From assembly GCF_050250835.1 (NCBI RefSeq), contig NZ_JBFWNX010000019.1:6549-70548 (forward strand): a DNA stretch of 64,000 bases, read 5' to 3'. The notes under the pieces were generated by a model, which made no database searches, was not told the origin of the DNA, and was given only the letters and a program-made list of their open reading frames with translations. This document shows, in pieces, positions 1,147 through 36,128 of the stretch. The translations under genes and the position numbers were made by a program. The DNA is from Hydrogenophaga sp. GTDB taxonomy: Bacteria; Pseudomonadota; Gammaproteobacteria; Burkholderiales; Burkholderiaceae_C. How positions within the stretch are numbered: the first letter of the stretch is position 1; each line of letters starts with the position of its first letter.

Positions 1147-1174
1147 GGTCGGTGATCGCCGCATCCGGATTACA
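1147..1174 (-). promoter_or_regulatory. ECF promoter variant B (TGTAAT-N17-CGACC) for yeeE; probably leaderless transcript
   Basis: Plus strand GGTCG 1147-1151 and ATTACA 1169-1174, 17-bp spacer; the ATG starts 8 nt after CGACC. Confidence 0.75.
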
Positions 1175-1182
1175 CCGATCGC

Positions 1183-1210
1183 TGTAATGATCCGGCTCCA
1201 GGTGACGACC
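1183..1210 (+). promoter_or_regulatory. ECF promoter variant B (TGTAAT-N17-CGACC) for the Cys-rich peptide operon
   Basis: TGTAAT 1183-1188, CGACC 1206-1210, 17-bp spacer. Confidence 0.75.
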
Positions 1211-1288: not shown

Positions 1289-1468
1289 ATGTCATCACTT
1301 TCTTCCCGCCTGTCCCTGAGCCTGGCTGCGGCCGTTGTCACCACCGCCGCCCTGGGTGGCTGCGCCATGGCCTGCCGCGCTTGCGGCGCCAAATGCGGCA
1401 CGTCCAAGACCATGCCTAAGTGCAGCGCCTGCAAGGCCAAATGCGGCGCCTGCGCACCCAAAAAGTAA
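1289..1468 (+). CDS. 59-aa secreted Cys-rich peptide (candidate RiPP precursor or metallothionein-like)
   Basis: GGAGA SD; hydrophobic N-terminal signal-like segment; core CRACGAKCG...CSACKAKCGAC; 8 Cys in total. Confidence 0.75.
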   Translation: MSSLSSRLSLSLAAAVVTTAALGGCAMACRACGAKCGTSKTMPKCSACKAKCGACAPKK

Positions 1469-1481
1469 TCAACCCGTGCCC

Positions 1482-1517
1482 CACGTCCCCTGAACGGCAC
1501 CCCGCTCTGGGGACGTG
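1482..1517 (+). other. Intergenic stem-loop after the peptide gene
   Basis: Perfect 9-bp inverted repeat CACGTCCCC (1482-1490) / GGGGACGTG (1509-1517), no U-tract. Confidence 0.5.
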
Positions 1518-1533
1518 TCATCGACCTGCATCC

Positions 1534-2241
1534 ATGCCTGCATCCGCCCTGCTGCGCCGACACTGGCGCTCGGCCCCATTCACCGAACTGGGCGCCGCCC
1601 TGCACCACGGCCAGGCCAGCGTAGAAGCCTTCGCCACCGCCACGGAAGCAGCGGGCTCCCTGCTCCAAAGCTGGGTGCAAGGCGCCGAGGTGGTGGCGTA
1701 CGAACACTACCCGCCATCCGACGTCATTGATCTGGCCAGCGGGACCCAGTTCTACTACCACGCCCACCGCACCCACGGCGACGAACACGGGCATCTGCAC
1801 GTGTTCTGGCACGCCACCGCGTCAGGCCGCCGCAGCCGCCCCACACAAGGCCGCAAGGTCTGGAAACGCAGCGCACCGACGCACATGTTGGCCATCGCGC
1901 TCGACGCCCGTGGCTTGCCGGTCAAGCTCTTCACCACCAACCAGTGGGTCACCGAAGGCCACTGGTTCGACACTGCGCTCACCCTGGCCTGCCTCGACCG
2001 CTGCCGACCCGGCCCGGTGCCCGGCCACGAAAACGCCTGCGCCTGGCTGGGCCATTTTCTGGCGCTGTACCGCCCCCTGATCGCCGACCTGCTGCAGCGC
2101 CGGGACGCCCGCCTCGCGAAGCACGGCGCCCTGGCGGATGCATTGAGCAACCACCGCCTGGAGGTGCTCAGCCAGTCGCGCATCGACTGGGCCGCCGATC
2201 TCGATGCCCTACAAGCCGAGGCGACCCGGCGCGGGCTCTGA
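1534..2241 (+). CDS. His-motif hypothetical protein (DUF6969-like from memory; start uncertain)
   Basis: Motifs QFYYHAHR, EHGHLHVF, THMLAIALD, LFTTNQWVT. Confidence 0.6.
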   Translation: MPASALLRRHWRSAPFTELGAALHHGQASVEAFATATEAAGSLLQSWVQGAEVVAYEHYPPSDVIDLASGTQFYYHAHRTHGDEHGHLHVFWHATASGRRSRPTQGRKVWKRSAPTHMLAIALDARGLPVKLFTTNQWVTEGHWFDTALTLACLDRCRPGPVPGHENACAWLGHFLALYRPLIADLLQRRDARLAKHGALADALSNHRLEVLSQSRIDWAADLDALQAEATRRGL

Positions 2242-4560: not shown

Positions 4561-4588
4561 AGTCGCCCCCACGCGTGCATTCCTTACA
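4561..4588 (-). promoter_or_regulatory. ECF promoter variant A (TGTAAG-N17-CGACT) for trx-ccdA-lipoprotein
   Basis: Plus strand AGTCG 4561-4565, CTTACA 4583-4588, 17-bp spacer. Confidence 0.8.
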
Positions 4589-6695: not shown

Positions 6696-6723
6696 AGTCG
6701 CTGCCCATCACGGCATCCTTACA
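6696..6723 (-). promoter_or_regulatory. ECF promoter variant A (TGTAAG-N17-CGACT) for bdhA-patatin
   Basis: Plus strand AGTCG 6696-6700, CTTACA 6718-6723, 17-bp spacer. Confidence 0.8.
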
Positions 6724-9606: not shown

Positions 9607-9634
9607 TGTAAGACGCGAGACTGCTAGAGCGACT
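9607..9634 (+). promoter_or_regulatory. ECF promoter variant A (TGTAAG-N17-CGACT), putative autoregulatory promoter of ECF sigma 1
   Basis: TGTAAG 9607-9612, CGACT 9630-9634. Confidence 0.8.
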
Positions 9635-9696
9635 GTGTGGGACCACCACCTGCCTTGTTCCAGCGACGGCGTACTTCAACCCAGGAGACCAAGACC

Positions 9697-10308
9697 ATGG
9701 ACACCGCTACGGGCCTTCATGCAAACCAACCCAGCACCCCCTCCACACCGCCGGGCGATCCGTGGACACCGCTGCGCCAGCGTCTGGTCCGGCACGCGCG
9801 CCTGCTGGTGCACGAGCCAGCGCTGGCCGAAGACCTGGCGCAGGAGACCCTGATGAGCGTGCTGGAGAGTCCGCAAGCCCACCGCGGCGATGCCTCGCTC
9901 ACCACCTGGGCCACCGCCATCCTGAAGAACAAAATTGCCGACTGGTACCGCTCGCCCCACCAGCGCCGCCGGGTCTACAACGCCAGCGACGAAGAGGAAG
10001 CCGACCCCGCCGAAGGACAGTTCAACGAACAGGGCGGGTACCTGGAGCCGGTTCCCGCCTGGCAACAGCCCGAAGGCCGGGAGGCGCAGCGTCAGATCAT
10101 GTCCAGCCTGGAGGCCTGCTTGCGCCATCTGCCACCGCAGACCGGACGCGTGTTCATGATGCGCGAATGGCTGGGATTCGAAACCTCCGAAATCTGCGAA
10201 CGGCTGGGGCTGACTGCTGACAACTGCCGCATGGTGCTGCACCGCGCACGCATGGGCCTGCGCCAATGCATGACATCCCATGGCCACACTGTCCGGAGCG
10301 CCACATGA
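9697..10308 (+). CDS. ECF sigma factor 1 (TIGR02943-like)
   Basis: AEDLAQETL, TWATAILKNKIAD, VFMMREWLG.ETSEIC..L.....N..M.LHRAR. Confidence 0.9.
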   Translation: MDTATGLHANQPSTPSTPPGDPWTPLRQRLVRHARLLVHEPALAEDLAQETLMSVLESPQAHRGDASLTTWATAILKNKIADWYRSPHQRRRVYNASDEEEADPAEGQFNEQGGYLEPVPAWQQPEGREAQRQIMSSLEACLRHLPPQTGRVFMMREWLGFETSEICERLGLTADNCRMVLHRARMGLRQCMTSHGHTVRSAT

Positions 10309-10535
10309 ACATTTTTCACTCCTGTGAGCGGGCGGCAGAACTCATGTCCCAGGCACTGGACGAACCCCTGGACCTGGCCGACCAGATGCGGCTGCGCATC
10401 CACCTCAAGATGTGCGGCAACTGCCAGGAGGTGGAGAAGCAGATGGCCACGCTTCACGCGCTGGCACCTCAGCTGGGGCTGCTCGATCTGGACATGAGCG
10501 ACGAACGCGAGCCGCCCGTGTCGAACACACCTTGA
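10305..10535 (+). CDS. zf-HC2 (ZAS) anti-sigma factor 1
   Basis: ATGA overlap with the sigma stop; C...HLKMCGNC. Confidence 0.85.
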   Translation: MNIFHSCERAAELMSQALDEPLDLADQMRLRIHLKMCGNCQEVEKQMATLHALAPQLGLLDLDMSDEREPPVSNTP

Positions 10536-10536
10536 G

Positions 10537-11358
10537 TCAGACTGGCTGCGCCGTCCACGCACCCGGCGCCATGCCGATCTTGCGCACGAAGGCGCGAGAG
10601 AGTGCGCTGGCACTGCCGTACCCCACTTCCAACGCCACCTGCTTGATGGCCACCCCGCGCGCCAAAAGCCGCTGCGCCGTCAGCACACGCCAGGAGGCCA
10701 GGTAGTCGGCCGGGGTCTGCCCCGTCACTTCGCGAAAGCGCTCGGCAAACCGGGCGCGCGACATGCCAGCGCGGTGCGCCATGCCGGGCAGATCCCACTG
10801 CAGTTGCGGCGATTCGTGCAGGGCCGCGAGCACCGGACCGATCCGTGCGTCCGCCAGCCCCGCCAGCGTGCCGCCCTGCGTCAGACCCTGGGCCATGCAG
10901 TGGCGCAGCAGACGGACCATCAGCACCTCGCACAGTCGGTCCAGCACCCCTTGGCGACCGGGGTGTTCGTGGAACGCCTCGTCGAACATCAGGTCCAGCA
11001 AAGCGTCCACCCCGGGCAACTGGCTCAGAGACACCATGACCAGATCCGGCAAGGAGGCGGTGATCGGGTTGATGCCAGAGCCACCGAACTGCACCGTGGC
11101 ACACACCACGTCCGCTCCGGCCCCGTCGTCGGCCACCAGGCGGTGCTGGTCGGGTCGCGGCAGGAACATCAGCGTGGGCTCGGTCACCGCAAACCGACGT
11201 CGTGTCACGCCCCGCACCTGCACGTCGCCGCTGCGGATCAGGTGCAGGTGCCCGCGCTGGGTGTCGCGCTCGAAATCGTGAATGCCACAGATGTTGCCGG
11301 TGTAGAAAACACCCGCGTGCAGGGAAAAGCTTTGGAGCAGGCTGGCCAGAGGATCCAT
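10537..11358 (-). CDS. AraC-family regulator with N-terminal cupin
   Basis: MDPLASLL, GHLHLI cupin, C-terminal double HTH GMSRARFA...VGYGSASALSRAF. Confidence 0.9.
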   Translation of the reverse strand: MDPLASLLQSFSLHAGVFYTGNICGIHDFERDTQRGHLHLIRSGDVQVRGVTRRRFAVTEPTLMFLPRPDQHRLVADDGAGADVVCATVQFGGSGINPITASLPDLVMVSLSQLPGVDALLDLMFDEAFHEHPGRQGVLDRLCEVLMVRLLRHCMAQGLTQGGTLAGLADARIGPVLAALHESPQLQWDLPGMAHRAGMSRARFAERFREVTGQTPADYLASWRVLTAQRLLARGVAIKQVALEVGYGSASALSRAFVRKIGMAPGAWTAQPV

Positions 11359-11426
11359 GTTCAGATGGTACGTCCGGTCAATCAACCATCAACATCAGGC
11401 ACCATTCGTATCCATTGCGGGTCAAG

Positions 11427-11996
11427 TCAAGTGCCATCTGGCGCCTGGGATGCTGCATCCAGGAAGGCCAACAAGGGCGCATAGCCCGTGTCCTTGAGGC
11501 CCTGCCCGCGGGCGACAAACACCTCGGGCGAACCCTTCACCCCATGCCCTTCCAGCAGCCGGTTCATGAAGTTGAACAGGCACACTGTGAGCACGGCATC
11601 GTGCAGGGCGGCTTCGCTCCAACCGGCGGCAAACACTGCCTGCGCATCGGCTTCGGTCATGCGCGAGGGCTCCAGCGTGAGCTTGCGCGCGTAGCGCAGC
11701 AGCGGCTTGAGCCGCTCGTCCACGTCGGCGCTGTCAATGTCGGTCAGCAGACGCTCCAGCACCCCGGCTTCCAGCCCGAACGCCCTGGCCGTCTCGGCGT
11801 GCACGCCAAAACAGTACTGGCAGGCATTGAGTCCGGAGACGTAAGCGGCGATCAGTTCTTTGTGGCGCGGCTCCAGCAGCCCCTCGTTGCGCAACGCGGC
11901 GGTGTGGAACTCGACCAGGGCCCGGCCCGCTCTCGGATTGAGCGTCAGGATGTGGCGAACGCCCGCGTCCTCGGGCAGTGATTTGAAGAAGCTCAT
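11427..11996 (-). CDS. Second CMD/AhpD-like peroxidase-related protein
   Basis: ELIAAYVSGLNACQYCFGVH, FNFMNRL. Confidence 0.85.
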   Translation of the reverse strand: MSFFKSLPEDAGVRHILTLNPRAGRALVEFHTAALRNEGLLEPRHKELIAAYVSGLNACQYCFGVHAETARAFGLEAGVLERLLTDIDSADVDERLKPLLRYARKLTLEPSRMTEADAQAVFAAGWSEAALHDAVLTVCLFNFMNRLLEGHGVKGSPEVFVARGQGLKDTGYAPLLAFLDAASQAPDGT

Positions 11997-12229
11997 GGGT
12001 GCTTGCTTTCGTGGTTCTGGGTGTTTGCGGTGCCAGGTTCTTCGATCACCTCGTCCAGGCGCTCTGAATAGGCCTTCATGGCCTTGCGTAGAAAAGGCAC
12101 CTGCAAGCTGAAGTTCTTGCAGCCGTCGCACATCATCAGGTGCAGGTTGAGCGACATCTTCTCGACAACCGAGAGCTTGCGCTCCTGGGATTCGGACACC
12201 AGGCGGGTCACTTCGCGGCAATTCAGCAT
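11993..12229 (-). CDS. zf-HC2 anti-sigma factor 2
   Basis: MLNCREVT...HLMMCDGC. Confidence 0.85.
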   Translation of the reverse strand: MLNCREVTRLVSESQERKLSVVEKMSLNLHLMMCDGCKNFSLQVPFLRKAMKAYSERLDEVIEEPGTANTQNHESKHP

Positions 12230-12861
12230 GTTGCACCTCCCCGGGCAAACCAGCGGTCTTCCAGACACTCCCGCAGACGCAGGCGCGCACGGTGCAGCAT
12301 CACATTGAGGTTGGTCGGGGTGATGCCCACCTCGCTGCAGATCTCGCGCGACTCCAGGCCCACGTATTCACGCATCATGAACACCTTGGCTTGTTGGCCT
12401 GGCAGCCCCTCCAGGCACAGCTCGAACACCTTCCAGAACTGCTTGTCGTGCAGGGTTTCGGTCGGATTGCCCCAGGTCGCGGGGCGCTCGTCTGCCTCCC
12501 ACATGCCCCGGCCATTGAACAGCTCGGAGAGGTCGGCCTCTTCGTCGGCATCGCCCACCGGCTGGTGGATCGAAACCTCGCGCTGCCGCTGGCGCAGCCG
12601 CAGGATGTCGGTGATCTTGTTCTTCAGGATAGCGAAAACCCAGGTCTTGAGACTGGCCTTGCCAGCGTAGGCCGCGGTGTTCCTGAAAGCACCCATCAGG
12701 GCCTCCTGCACCGCGTCTTCGGCCAGTTGCGGGTCCCCCAGCTGAAGAGAAGCGAACTTGACCATCTTGCCCCGCAGCGCGCTCAGCTCGGCCGGATCAA
12801 TCTCCTGAGCCTGAGACGCGCCGTCCTGCACATCGGCTGCCTTTGTCTTGCTGGCGCTCAT
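12223..12861 (-). CDS. ECF sigma factor 2 (TIGR02943-like)
   Basis: AEDAVQEAL, TWVFAILKNKITD, VFMMREYVGLESREIC, LHRARLRLRECL. Confidence 0.9.
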   Translation of the reverse strand: MSASKTKAADVQDGASQAQEIDPAELSALRGKMVKFASLQLGDPQLAEDAVQEALMGAFRNTAAYAGKASLKTWVFAILKNKITDILRLRQRQREVSIHQPVGDADEEADLSELFNGRGMWEADERPATWGNPTETLHDKQFWKVFELCLEGLPGQQAKVFMMREYVGLESREICSEVGITPTNLNVMLHRARLRLRECLEDRWFARGGATC

Positions 12862-13094
12862 GGTGCAGCCTTGTTCGACAGTTGATTGCGCGCTGCGCTG
12901 TAACTGGACACCGCGTAGGGCACCAGGAAATTCAGTAACACGTGTCCCCAGGCGATGGGTCCGCCCGAGAAAAACGCCTCGCCCTGGTTGATCAGGTTGA
13001 GCACACAGCCCACGACCAGCGAAACACGCAGCGCGCCCACCACGATGGGCCGTGAAAACACCGTGCCTAAAAACCTTTGCATCAACGGCTCCAT
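12858..13094 (-). CDS. NrtS-like small membrane protein (start 13094 or 13082)
   Basis: ALRVSLVVGCVLNLINQG and NFLVPYAVSSY motifs; stop overlaps the sigma 2 start. Confidence 0.7.
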   Translation of the reverse strand: MEPLMQRFLGTVFSRPIVVGALRVSLVVGCVLNLINQGEAFFSGGPIAWGHVLLNFLVPYAVSSYSAARNQLSNKAAP

Positions 13095-13244
13095 ATGTAG
13101 GGTGGTGTCTGACGCCCTGTACAGGCGCGCAGACGCTGGCCGCGATTCTCGTACAGAACGCCCGGCGTCCGGGCGCAGCGCACAGCGGCGTCCACCGAAA
13201 TAGCTTGCAACCCATACCCGAACTCCATGTGTGTTGACAGACTT

Positions 13245-13272
13245 GGTCGCCGAGCGCGCGTTATTCATTACA
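13245..13272 (-). promoter_or_regulatory. ECF promoter variant B (TGTAAT-N17-CGACC) for nrtS-sigma2-antisigma2-CMD
   Basis: Plus strand GGTCG 13245-13249, ATTACA 13267-13272. Confidence 0.75.
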
Positions 13273-13341: not shown

Positions 13342-13369
13342 TGTAAGGATCGCCCAAACGGAGGCGACT
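13342..13369 (+). promoter_or_regulatory. ECF promoter variant A (TGTAAG-N17-CGACT) for bufABCD
   Basis: TGTAAG 13342-13347, CGACT 13365-13369. Confidence 0.8.
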
Positions 13370-13434: not shown

Positions 13435-13755
13435 ATGAGCTACAGCATCACCCGCCGCAACGCCGCCCAGATCGCCTCGGGCGCAGCCCTTGCCCTCGCC
13501 ATGGGCGCCGCCCTCACGCTGGCCGCCAGCCCGGCCGTCGCCCAGAGCGCCGACAAGGAGAAGTGCTTCGGCGTCGCCCTCAAAGGCAAGAACGACTGCG
13601 CTGCCGGCCCCGGCACCACCTGCGCCGGAACATCCAAGGTGGACTACCAGGGCAACGCCTGGTCGCTGGTGCCCAAGGGCAGCTGCGAGAAGACCGCATC
13701 GCCCAAGTCGCCCACCGGGTTCGGCCAGCTCAAGGAATTCAAAGAGAAGGCCTGA
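13435..13755 (+). CDS. bufA: Bufferin precursor (DUF2282/BufA1)
   Basis: Sec signal; [19 protein letters not shown]...W...GSC four-Cys pattern. Confidence 0.9.
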
Positions 13756-13799
13756 TCGCTTCGCGTGAACGACGGACACCAGAACCAGGAGCCGACGCC

Positions 13800-14774
13800 A
13801 TGAGCCACCGCGCTGCCTCGACCACCGCCTGCGTTCCGCCGATCACGCTGACGGACCACAGCCCACCCGATCGCTGGCCCCTGCCGCATCGGGCGGGGCT
13901 GGGCCTCAAGCCCGAACATTTCACGCACATTCACGAGCACCAGCCCGATGTCGGCTTCTTCGAGGTGCATGCGGAAAACTACCTCGTGGCCGGTGGCCCG
14001 CTGCTGCAACACCTCACCCGCATTCGTGAAAGCTATCCACTGAGCATCCACGGCGTGGGCCTGTCCATCGGCGGCGAAGACCCGCTCGATACCACCCACC
14101 TGGACGCCGTGGCCTGCCTGCTGGAGCGCTTCCAGCCCGCCGTTTTCTCCGAACACCTTGCTTGGTCCAGCCACGGCGGCGTGTTCTTCAACGACCTGCT
14201 GCCCCTGCCCTACAACCTGCCCACGCTGCAACGCGTGTGCGAACACATCGACCAGGTGCAAAGCCGCCTCGGGCGCGCCCTGCTGCTGGAGAACCCGTCC
14301 ACCTACGTCGAGTTCATCAGCTCGACCTGGAGCGAAGGCGACTTCCTGCGCGAAGTGATCCACCGCACCGGCTGCGGCCTGCTGCTCGATGTCAACAACG
14401 TGTATGTCTCCAGCGTCAACCACGGGCGCGACCCCCGACGCAGCCTGTGCGAACTGCCCTGCCATGCCGCGGGCGAAATCCACCTCGCGGGGTTTGCCGA
14501 AGACCTCGACGCCGCCGGCGACCGCCTGCTGATTGACACCCACGGCACGCCGGTGGCCGAGGCGGTCTGGGCCCTGTACGACGCCGCGCTGGCGATCACT
14601 GGACCGTTGCCGACATTGATCGAGCGAGACAACGATCTCCCTTCCTTCGAGGTGCTGCGTCAGGAGGCTCGCTTGGCCGACATGCACTTGTCGGCCATCG
14701 CCCCCGCCACCGGCCGCGCCAAACCTTGCCCCCGGACCAAAACCCGCTACGCGGCGGCACAGGAGGTTGCATGA
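13800..14774 (+). CDS. bufB: DUF692 multinuclear non-heme iron oxidase (MNIO)
   Basis: [60 protein letters not shown]. Confidence 0.92.
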
Positions 14775-15541
14775 GCGTGCAACACACCTGGGCGCAGTCC
14801 CTGCTGGATCCCTCGCAATCACCACCCGCAGGCCTCACCACCTGGAACCACAGCGATCCCTCCAAGCGCTTGGCGGTGTACCGCAACAACGTGCTGGTCT
14901 CGCTGGTGGACGCGCTGGCCCACACCTTCCCGGTGACGCAAGAACTGGTGGGAGAAGACTTCTTCCGCGCCATGGCCCAGGTCTTTGTGCGCGCCCACCC
15001 GCCCCGCACCCGCGTGCTCGCGCACTACGGCCAGGCGCTGCCGGGGTTCATCGCCCAGTTTCCGCCCGCCACCGGTCTGCCCTACCTGGCCGATGTGGCA
15101 CAACTCGAATGGCAACGCCTGCAGGCCCTGCATGCGGCCGACGCCAGCGCCATGGAGCCCGCCGCCATCGCCATGCTGCTGGGTGACGCCGCGAGCTTGC
15201 CTCAGGTGCATTGGCAACCGCATCCGAGCCTGCACCTGCTGCGCTCGCCTCATGCGGCCGTCTCGCTCTGGGCTGCCCACCAGGCCGACAGCGGCCTGGC
15301 GCTGGAACACATTGACACCACACGGGCCGAATCGGCCCTGGTGTTTCGCAGCGTGCTGAACGTGATGGTGCTGCAGGCCGATGCCGGCTTGGCCGCCCTG
15401 ACAGCCGGCCTGCTTGACAACGCCCCCTTCGGCGCAGCCATCGCCCAGGCCTTGAGCGCCGACCCCGCTTTCGACCCCGCGCAGGCCATGGCCGTGCTGA
15501 TCCGCCACGGGTTGCTGGTCGGCGCCCGGCACCCGCACTGA
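14771..15541 (+). CDS. bufC: DUF2063 (HvfC/BufC) MNIO partner protein
   Basis: [11 protein letters not shown]...[15 protein letters not shown]. Confidence 0.88.
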
Positions 15542-15607
15542 ACACCGGCACAGACCCCGTTTCGCCACTCACAACCTCTTTCAGCCACAACAACCCAGGA
15601 GACCGCC

Positions 15608-16138
15608 ATGAACACCCTCACCACTTCCCAAGGTACCGACACCAACGGCCTGATGTCGCGCCTGAGCGCGCTGCTGCGCACCGTGCACGGCATGATGGGC
15701 CACCTGCCCAACACGCTGCTGGCCTTCATCGCCCGCTTCTCCATCGCCGCCGTGTTCTGGAAATCGGGCCAGACCAAGATCGAAGGCCTGGCCATCGACA
15801 TCGTCAGCGGCGAGTTCACGCTGGGCATGCCCCGACTGTCCGACAACGCCGTGTTCCTGTTCAAGGAAGAATACAAATTGCCCATCCTGTCGCCAGAACT
15901 GGGCGCGACGATGGCCGCGCTGGGCGAACACATCCTGCCCATCTTCATCCTGCTCGGCCTGGCCACCCGCCTGTCGGCGCTGGGCCTGCTGGGCATGACG
16001 ATGGTGATCCAGCTCTTCGTCTACCCCGACGCCTACGCCACCCACGGCACCTGGGCCGCCGTGTTGCTCTACCTCATGGTCCACGGCCCGGGCAAGCTGT
16101 CGATCGACGCCTGGATTGCCAAGCGCTGCGCCGGCTGA
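15608..16138 (+). CDS. bufD: DoxX-family membrane protein
   Basis: FWKSGQTK, LFKEEY, GLATRLSAL, HGPGKLSID. Confidence 0.88.
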   Translation: MNTLTTSQGTDTNGLMSRLSALLRTVHGMMGHLPNTLLAFIARFSIAAVFWKSGQTKIEGLAIDIVSGEFTLGMPRLSDNAVFLFKEEYKLPILSPELGATMAALGEHILPIFILLGLATRLSALGLLGMTMVIQLFVYPDAYATHGTWAAVLLYLMVHGPGKLSIDAWIAKRCAG

Positions 16139-27383: not shown

Positions 27384-27411
27384 TGTAAGGACCCGGGACA
27401 TCGCAGCGACT
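27384..27411 (+). promoter_or_regulatory. ECF promoter variant A (TGTAAG-N17-CGACT) for the TVP38-reductase operon
   Basis: TGTAAG 27384-27389, CGACT 27407-27411. Confidence 0.8.
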
Positions 27412-36100: not shown

Positions 36101-36128
36101 AGTCGGATGAGCACCCCAAATGCTTACA
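36101..36128 (-). promoter_or_regulatory. ECF promoter variant A (TGTAAG-N17-CGACT) for ynjBCDF
   Basis: Plus strand AGTCG 36101-36105, CTTACA 36123-36128. Confidence 0.8.

Follow-up and report, generated by a model that had tools for sequence, protein, structure and literature searches.

Results

The 64,000-nucleotide stretch of Hydrogenophaga sp. DNA considered here (the window) carries, in a mobile-looking island, two paralogous extracytoplasmic function (ECF) sigma factors, each encoded together with a zinc-associated anti-sigma factor (ZAS), and nine promoter-like sites that fall into two sequence classes. From the motifs, their restriction to the island, the paralogy of the proteins, the residues by which these differ and the patterns found in related genomes, we infer which sigma factor would fire which promoter. 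The interpretation that we tentatively favour is that the two regulons overlap asymmetrically rather than being orthogonal, and that sigma 2 might be a generalist and sigma 1 might be confined to class 1 promoters. In the same tentative interpretation, all nine sites would be genuine promoters of a single ECF family, which, judged by gene layout and promoter against published descriptions, may be of the Neisseria sigma-E/MseR and Haemophilus RpoE2/HrsE type.

Nine promoter sites in two classes

The search for the pattern TGTAAK-N(15-19)-CGACY in the window, using letter shuffles as control, gave exactly nine matches, each with a spacer of 17 nt, while the shuffled window contained a mean of 0.16 and a maximum of 2. 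Across the 4.26 Mb genome, TGTAAK-N17-CGACY likewise occurs nine times, and all nine occurrences lie within the window. Six sites have the form TGTAAG..CGACT (G/T form, class 1) and three the form TGTAAT..CGACC (T/C form, class 2). The coupling between the last -35 base and the last -10 base is thus perfect (Fisher exact p = 1/84 = 0.012), just as an earlier note on this DNA had reported, and it reaches further, since the T/C sites read CGACCAAG in 3/3 cases and the G/T sites in 0/6. Every site lies 8-150 nt upstream of a plausible start codon. One further match, TGTAAT-N17-CGACA at C19:2197 on the plus strand, 4.3 kb upstream of the window, precedes an open reading frame of the group II intron reverse transcriptase type and is probably a chance match.

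The two sigma operons are preceded by different promoter classes, as had been claimed before. The promoter of the sigma1-ZAS1 operon (9607..9634, plus strand) reads TGTAAG-N17-CGACTGTG, and that of the nrtS-sigma2-ZAS2-CMD operon (13245..13272, minus strand) reads TGTAAT-N17-CGACCAAG; both are recognized by the motif and by orthologous sites. The class 1 promoter of bufABCD (13342..13369, plus strand) reads TGTAAG-N17-CGACTACA, with a CGACTAC that is conserved at bufA. A DUF4148 gene had been suggested as a possible target of sigma 2, but the gene following the 13342 promoter encodes a DUF2282 protein (BufA), and no fourth exact T/C site was found in the window or elsewhere in the genome.

Two paralogous sigma/ZAS pairs

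The description of the island as holding two paralogous ECF sigma/ZAS pairs proved correct at the level of domains and family scores. Sigma 1 (9697..10308, plus strand) is a divergent sigma factor of the TIGR02943 type with the recognition helix DNCRMVLHRAR, and sigma 2 (12223..12861, minus strand) a canonical member with the helix TNLNVMLHRAR; their scores of 170.8 and 233.2 bits both exceed the curated NCBIfam cut-off of 162.2 bits. They are 42% identical, and Sigma70_r2 and r4_2 (Pfam) are the only sigma regions in both. The predicted cytoplasmic anti-sigma factors ZAS1 (76 amino acids, 10305..10535, plus strand) and ZAS2 (79 amino acids, 11993..12232, minus strand) match zf-HC2 (6e-8 for ZAS1), contain HxxxCxxC in the form HLKMCGNC and HLMMCDGC, respectively, and score 53 and 77 bits against NF052368 ('antisigmaE', cut-off 50 bits). 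Their genes directly follow the sigma genes in reading frames overlapping by 4-10 nt, and the two proteins share only 29% identity over 45 residues. In the closest named relative, H. aromaticivorans D2P1, the sigma proteins are 88-92% identical to those of the window.

Some relatives with a single sigma factor carry both promoter types

The main evidence against orthogonality comes from relatives that possess one sigma factor and both promoter types. Searching whole genomes of relatives with sigma 1 as query showed that G086 (H. taeniospiralis), G087, G088, G097 (Aromatoleum diolicum), G099-G103 and G105 encode a single TIGR02943-like sigma factor, which belongs to the sigma-2 clade; no sigma-1 orthologue was found in these whole-genome searches (identity at most 46%). 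The recognition helices of the single sigma factors share the base-contact residues of sigma 2 (NLNV..HRAR), with the exception of G087 (NLHV). At the sigma-2-clade loci the bufA promoter adjoining the sigma gene reads TGTAAG-N16/17-CGACTA in 14 of 15 cases, the locus in G088 being without bufA, whereas the sigma factor's own promoter reads TGTAA[C/T]..CGAC[C/A/T]. Three single-sigma genomes combine both types, with own promoters of the C/C (G086), C/T (G101) and G/C (G087) form and a G/T form at bufA in each. Promoters had hence divided into a 'target type' and an 'own-operon type' before sigma 1 arose, and, on the sequences compared, one sigma-2-type protein evidently uses both promoter forms.

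In single-sigma loci such as L093:5484-5580, L109 and L094:5914-5964 the bufA promoters retain G at -31 together with CGACTAC, and the own promoter retains a pyrimidine at -31 in G086 and G101 and an extended -10 element of the CGACC type in G086 and G087; these variants look like conserved promoter-specific forms. We also considered a 'character displacement', in which the sigma-2 promoter would have T only alongside sigma 1. A set of 11 genomes seemed to favour it (p about 0.055), but it was rejected, since T is common also in sigma-2-clade promoters of taxa lacking sigma 1, e.g., Microbulbifer.

The two-base code breaks down in sister islands

Orthologous promoters were aligned between the window and the islands of G081 (H. 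aromaticivorans), G082 and G083, in which both sigma factors are present. TGTAA and CGAC are invariant while the spacers are just 49-62% identical, which indicates that the motifs are under selection. The -10 split of CGACT versus CGAC[C/A]AA is conserved in the four islands: the base after CGAC is T in 21/22 class 1 promoters and, in 12/12 class 2 promoters, C (10) or A (2) followed by AA. On the -10 side the three closest islands keep the same mapping of genes to classes. The last -35 base, in contrast, departs from the class, being T in seven, C in four and G in one of the class 2 promoters, and its pairwise identity (0.58) is no higher than that of spacer positions (0.49-0.62). The covariation that the earlier note expected in homologous islands gives way to G/C, C/C, C/A and T/A combinations at orthologous promoters, namely G/C at yeeE and ynjB of G083, C/C at the Cys-peptide gene of G081 and at yeeE of G082, C/A at the Cys-peptide gene of G082 and T/A at the sigma-2 operon of G083. 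Since such natural hybrids occur in all three sister islands, the perfect covariation belongs to the window genome alone.

Within class 1 the last -35 base is uniform per genome. It is always G in the window, G081 and G083, and C in all four promoters of G082 and in both of the sister island L011, a placement by genome with a chance of 1/7315 if G and C were distributed at random. The concerted change from G to C in G082 and L011 points to a selective trans factor that the class 1 promoters have in common. The sigma-1 operon promoter is kept as TGTAA[G/C]..CGACT[G/T] in G081, G082, G083, L011 and L012 with diverged spacers. The spacer of the orthologous sigma-1 and bufA promoters is 16 nt in most sister genomes, compared with 17 nt in the window, so that one-base spacer indels are evidently tolerated.

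Sigma 2 has been deleted from two islands, L011:6737-7576 (metagenome-assembled genome Prado208), where a 147-nt remnant is left, and L012:6812-7419, which holds araC/CMD remnants. The orphan nrtS promoter of L011 reads TGTAAC..CGACCAAA and has the same -35 base as the class 1 promoters of that genome.

Residues predicted to contact DNA

Proteins were aligned with E. coli RpoE translated from MG1655, the register being set by the F/H-R-A-R motif. In sigma-E, R171 hydrogen-bonds the G opposite C-31 of GGAAC (PMC1540707), and the C-31 position corresponds to the last base of TGTAAN. The R171-equivalent residue is Arg in sigma 1, Asn in sigma 2 and Tyr in the third paralogue described below, and the S172-equivalent residue is Met in sigma 1 and Val in sigma 2; the two island sigma factors thus consistently carry different residues at two (R/N, M/V) of the four positions that canonically contact -35 bases. 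They differ also in the region of the specificity loop, HRGDAS in sigma 1 versus YAGKAS in sigma 2. The residue comparison proposed earlier therefore bears out differences in region 4 and in the loop, but a correlation of the fifth -10 base with the specificity-loop sequence was looked for among the homologues and none was found.

Across 162 homologues, in counts that ignore phylogeny, the residue pair NV goes with a pyrimidine at -31 of the putative own promoter in 22 cases and with G in 1, the pair HV with G in 4/4 cases from at least three lineages, and the pair RM with G in 14 and C in 2 cases and never with T. The NV rule is broken by the G-type bufA promoters in those same genomes, and Asn would consequently be permissive rather than selective. 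Arg-Met may be selective for the G:C pair at -31. At the -10 element, the C of GAC should be the ECF 'master' nucleotide. The open complex of sigma-H (PMC6411747) shows few contacts to the base that follows this nucleotide; four bases downstream, a G is flipped into a pocket. Class 2 promoters possess a pocket-type G at this distance (CGAC-CAAG).

A third paralogue outside the island

Exactly three proteins of the assembly exceed the TIGR02943 cut-off. The third, sigma 3 (C4:311758-312339, 229.7 bits), likewise has Pfam r2 and r4_2 as its only sigma regions and is followed by ZAS3. A redoxin gene and another complete bufferin operon, bufA2B2C2D2, lie divergent to it (region C4:308500-312540). 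TGTAAK-N16-CGACN sites precede five genes or operons linked to sigma 3, which form its candidate regulon: redoxin-buf2 beside sigma 3 on C4, a second VTT-reductase gene (C4:300864) whose product is 71% identical to the one of the island, msrP (C1:471051), msrB (C11:40599) and a DUF1223 gene (C15:32528). The msrB and msrP sites are probably sigma-3 targets, as judged from the motif. G and T are mixed at the last -35 base of the five sites, C, G and T occur after CGAC, and the spacer is 16 nt in 5/5 of them versus 17 nt in 9/9 island sites.

A genus-wide scan for TGTAAN-N16/17-CGACY in 81 genomes was too noisy to be used, as counts for the reversed control pattern equalled the real ones. The most recurrent match, TGTAAGGAACTG..CGACC (C4:312229, plus strand), present in nearly every Hydrogenophaga genome, was discarded as a promoter, since it encodes the conserved ICKELSLTPTN stretch in region 4 of sigma 3.

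Discussion

Overlapping regulons and the alternatives

According to the asymmetric interpretation, sigma 2 would represent the ancestral type, whose Asn at the residue reading -31 would tolerate G, C or T there. It would also accept T, C or A after CGAC and could hence fire both classes, bufA included. Sigma 1, in this view a derived paralogue confined to the Burkholderiales, might, with Arg-Met at the contact positions, be restricted to a G:C pair at -31 plus CGACT, i.e., to class 1, and would probably be kept off the TGTAAT..CGACCAAG promoters of yeeE, the Cys-peptide gene and the sigma-2 operon. The two different ZAS sensors would provide two separate inputs, one switching on the redox/bufferin set alone and the other the sulfur/Cys-peptide set and, in part at least, the redox/bufferin set as well.

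Several points weigh against this interpretation. Autoregulation is an assumption, and it was weak for H. influenzae RpoE2 (PMC7907618). In the lineage in which class 1 switched from G to C, no clear residue change of sigma 1 was found; the sole candidate is a T to S exchange at the N-terminus of the helix, and Ser at this position co-occurs with G in Rhodoferax. Own promoters of the sigma-1 clade in Rhodoferax also use CGACC or CGACA, which means that the -10 base does not exclude sigma 1 in general, and the few contacts made by the base after the master nucleotide in the sigma-H complex (PMC6411747) count against a role of this base as well. The island promoters could also be open to sigma 3, whose R171-equivalent residue is Tyr. 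Finally, the correlations between residues and bases are uncorrected for phylogeny.

It is conceivable, though on balance unlikely, that there is no partition at the sigma level at all, and that both island sigma factors, perhaps with sigma 3, read all nine promoters alike. The classes would then reflect ancestry or tuning, 'own-operon' versus 'target' type, for example in strength or in start-site choice. The dichotomy between TGTAAG..CGACTAC at bufA and TGTAAY..CGACM at the own operon, which exists already in one-sigma genomes and therefore predates sigma 1, fits such an arrangement, and so do the hybrids at orthologous promoters, the variation of both positions within each sigma clade and the mixture of bases at the five candidate promoters of sigma 3. 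It leaves unexplained, however, why the paralogues consistently differ at the R/N and M/V contact positions and in the specificity-loop region and why the own promoters of RM-type sigma factors never have T at -31, and it hardly accounts for the concerted G to C change of class 1 in one lineage, which seems to call for a selective trans factor common to these promoters. We consider it doubtful that the sigma factors are instead a recently diverged, near-orthogonal pair within one ECF subgroup, in which the Arg-to-Asn difference would set the preference at -31 (G:C versus T) and the extended -10 element (CGACT versus CGACCAAG) would reinforce it. If this were true, the lineage-wide switch of class 1 from G to C would be a co-evolution of sigma factor and regulon caught in the act, and swaps of single residues and of single bases would reprogram the specificity.

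A little less probable still is the strict orthogonality advanced in the earlier note, with sigma 1 reading only G/T and sigma 2 only T/C promoters and with the final bases of the -35 and -10 elements deciding between them. The perfect 6/3 covariation of the window genome, the different class at each sigma operon, the Arg/Asn difference at the -31-reading residue and the T shared by all class 2 sites of the window, a base that RM-type sigma factors never use in their own promoters, all speak for it. Nevertheless, the covariation breaks down in 3/3 sister islands, single-sigma relatives with the sigma-2 helix carry G/T promoters at bufA, and the fifth -10 base is free to vary in both clades and is weakly contacted in the solved ECF open complex (PMC6411747), so that a specificity set by these two bases does not hold across the relatives. 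A chromosomal sigma factor from outside the island had been named as what would refute the split regulon, and the genome does contain a third TIGR02943 sigma/ZAS pair, whose candidate promoters follow the same grammar; that it drives island promoters is a supposition from sequence. We regard it as very unlikely that some or all of the island promoters are driven mainly by sigma 3/ZAS3 (contig C4), with the island sigma factors contributing little. The high TIGR02943 score of sigma 3 and its position next to a second bufferin operon and a VTT-oxidoreductase paralogue with TGTAAK..CGAC sites are compatible with this possibility, but the spacer length separates its linked sites from those of the island, and the island sigma factors, promoters and targets are inherited together in the sister genomes.

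Relation to known ECF systems

The sigma factor most readily compared with those of the island is sigma-E (NMB2144, 'Ecf') of Neisseria meningitidis and N. gonorrhoeae with its ZAS anti-sigma factor MseR (PMC2893595; PMC3240639). It has the deduced consensus -35 GTAAGGTT and -10 CGTCTAA and controls a DUF2282-MNIO-DUF2063-DoxX operon (PMC2893595). Sigma-E/MseR and RpoE2/HrsE of H. influenzae have small cytoplasmic ZAS proteins and control a DoxX-DUF2063-DUF692-DUF2282 operon and msrAB (PMC2893595; PMC7907618). As in these systems, an ECF sigma factor of Hydrogenophaga is followed by a cytoplasmic ZAS of about 70 amino acids containing C/H-x23-26-H-x3-C-x2-C, the promoter has the same geometry (GTAAG..16-17 nt..CGxC), and the candidate regulon is small, locally clustered and centred on a bufferin-type operon along with thiol and methionine-sulfoxide repair. 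Unlike in Neisseria, the -10 element of the island is CGAC[T/C] and not CGTC. Moreover, unlike in Neisseria and Haemophilus, there are three paralogous pairs in one genome, two of which lie in a mobile-looking island together with the nine promoters of both classes, and the msr genes belong to the candidate regulon of the chromosomal third paralogue. The control of bufferin-type operons by ECF sigma/ZAS pairs is already published; new here are the uncharacterised sigma-1 clade, the three co-resident paralogues, the nine promoters confined to the island and the natural hybrids in sister genomes.

Insulation of related ECF paralogues is known in outline from the sigma-X, sigma-W and sigma-M regulons of Bacillus subtilis and from synthetic orthogonal ECF sets; we know of few natural cases from within one ECF subgroup. 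The B. subtilis regulons, which are discussed in PMC3817407, reportedly overlap, as Qiu and Helmann are said to have described in 2001. Like those sigma factors, the ones discussed here share a -35 core, one or two -10 bases would bias the choice rather than fully separate it, and the anti-sigma inputs would be separate. The B. subtilis proteins, however, belong to other ECF groups with membrane anti-sigma factors in a Gram-positive host, and here the best candidate for a discriminator would be the -31 base, read by Arg versus Asn. That a few bases can decide whether paralogous ECF sigma factors have promoters in common or divide them up, and that the -35 and -10 elements act together in specificity, has been described (PMC3817407).

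In Caulobacter, metal or oxidative stress acts through SigF/NrsF (ECF16) on the bufferin operons buf1 and buf2 (PMC3511200; PMC11626156). The island resembles this system in the predicted link between an ECF sigma factor and bufferin operons and in a GTAAC-like -35 element. It differs from it in having soluble ZAS proteins (zf-HC2) versus the DUF1109 membrane protein NrsF, in the CGAC element versus GTAACC-N16-CGAA, and in the TIGR02943 sigma family; membership in ECF16 was ruled out on the grounds of the soluble anti-sigma factors and the CGAC -10 element. Assignment to ECF18, suggested by TIGR02943 and the name RpoT, was likewise rejected, as the published consensus GCATCC/CGTAT does not fit.

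With three sigma/ZAS pairs, fourteen candidate promoters, natural hybrids and a mutable Arg/Asn/Tyr residue, the locus constitutes a compact test bed. It also points to the genes that Hydrogenophaga links to bufferin production, i.e., thioredoxin/CcdA, VTT-flavoreductase, YeeE and the Cys-rich lipopeptide. A lesson of the comparison is that a perfect covariation of nine sites in one genome can vanish once sister genomes are read.

Other features of the island

The remaining promoters were assigned by the motif. Two class 2 promoters, that of yeeE (sulfur transport; 1147..1174, minus strand) and that of the Cys-rich lipoprotein peptide and DUF6969 genes (1183..1210, plus strand), stand back to back, with their -35 boxes 8 bp apart in an imperfect palindrome (1147-1210). 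The ATG of yeeE begins 7 nt past the CGACC, and its mRNA is for this reason probably leaderless. Class 1 promoters precede the thioredoxin-CcdA/DsbD_TM genes (4561..4588, minus strand), SDR-patatin (6696..6723, minus strand), the operon of a VTT(TVP38)-pyridine nucleotide disulfide oxidoreductase fusion (27384..27411, plus strand) and a ynjBCD-like ABC transporter (36101..36128, minus strand).

The Cys-peptide is a 59-amino-acid exported peptide (1289-1468, plus strand) with a lipobox-like LGGC and repeated CxxC/KCG motifs, and is followed by the DUF6969 gene (1420-2241, plus strand). The pair is 95% identical in the sister islands, and in Rhodoferax relatives it shares an operon with trx-ccdA under a promoter of the G/T type. 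The bufferin operon (13435..16138, plus strand) encodes, by domain matches, DUF2282 BufA, MNIO BufB, DUF2063 BufC and DoxX BufD.

An AraC/cupin_6 regulator gene, identified by its domain match, lies between the two sigma operons (10537..11385, minus strand); the motif scans of the window found no ECF promoter upstream of it. The last gene of the nrtS-sigma2-ZAS2 operon encodes a CMD/AhpD-like peroxidase-related protein (11427..11996, minus strand; domain match). An Rfam search of positions 1-40000 of the window gave no match. The first gene of the same operon encodes an NrtS-like small membrane protein (12858..13094, minus strand; NF038050, 33.8 bits versus a cut-off of 25) and is conserved upstream of sigma-2 orthologues. 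The conserved 150-nt nrtS leader folds no better than its shuffles (z = -1.26). This leader (about 150 nt; 13095-13244, minus strand) opens with the block aagYctgtcaaMacacaYggag..cgggta, which is conserved in four sister genomes and in L011.

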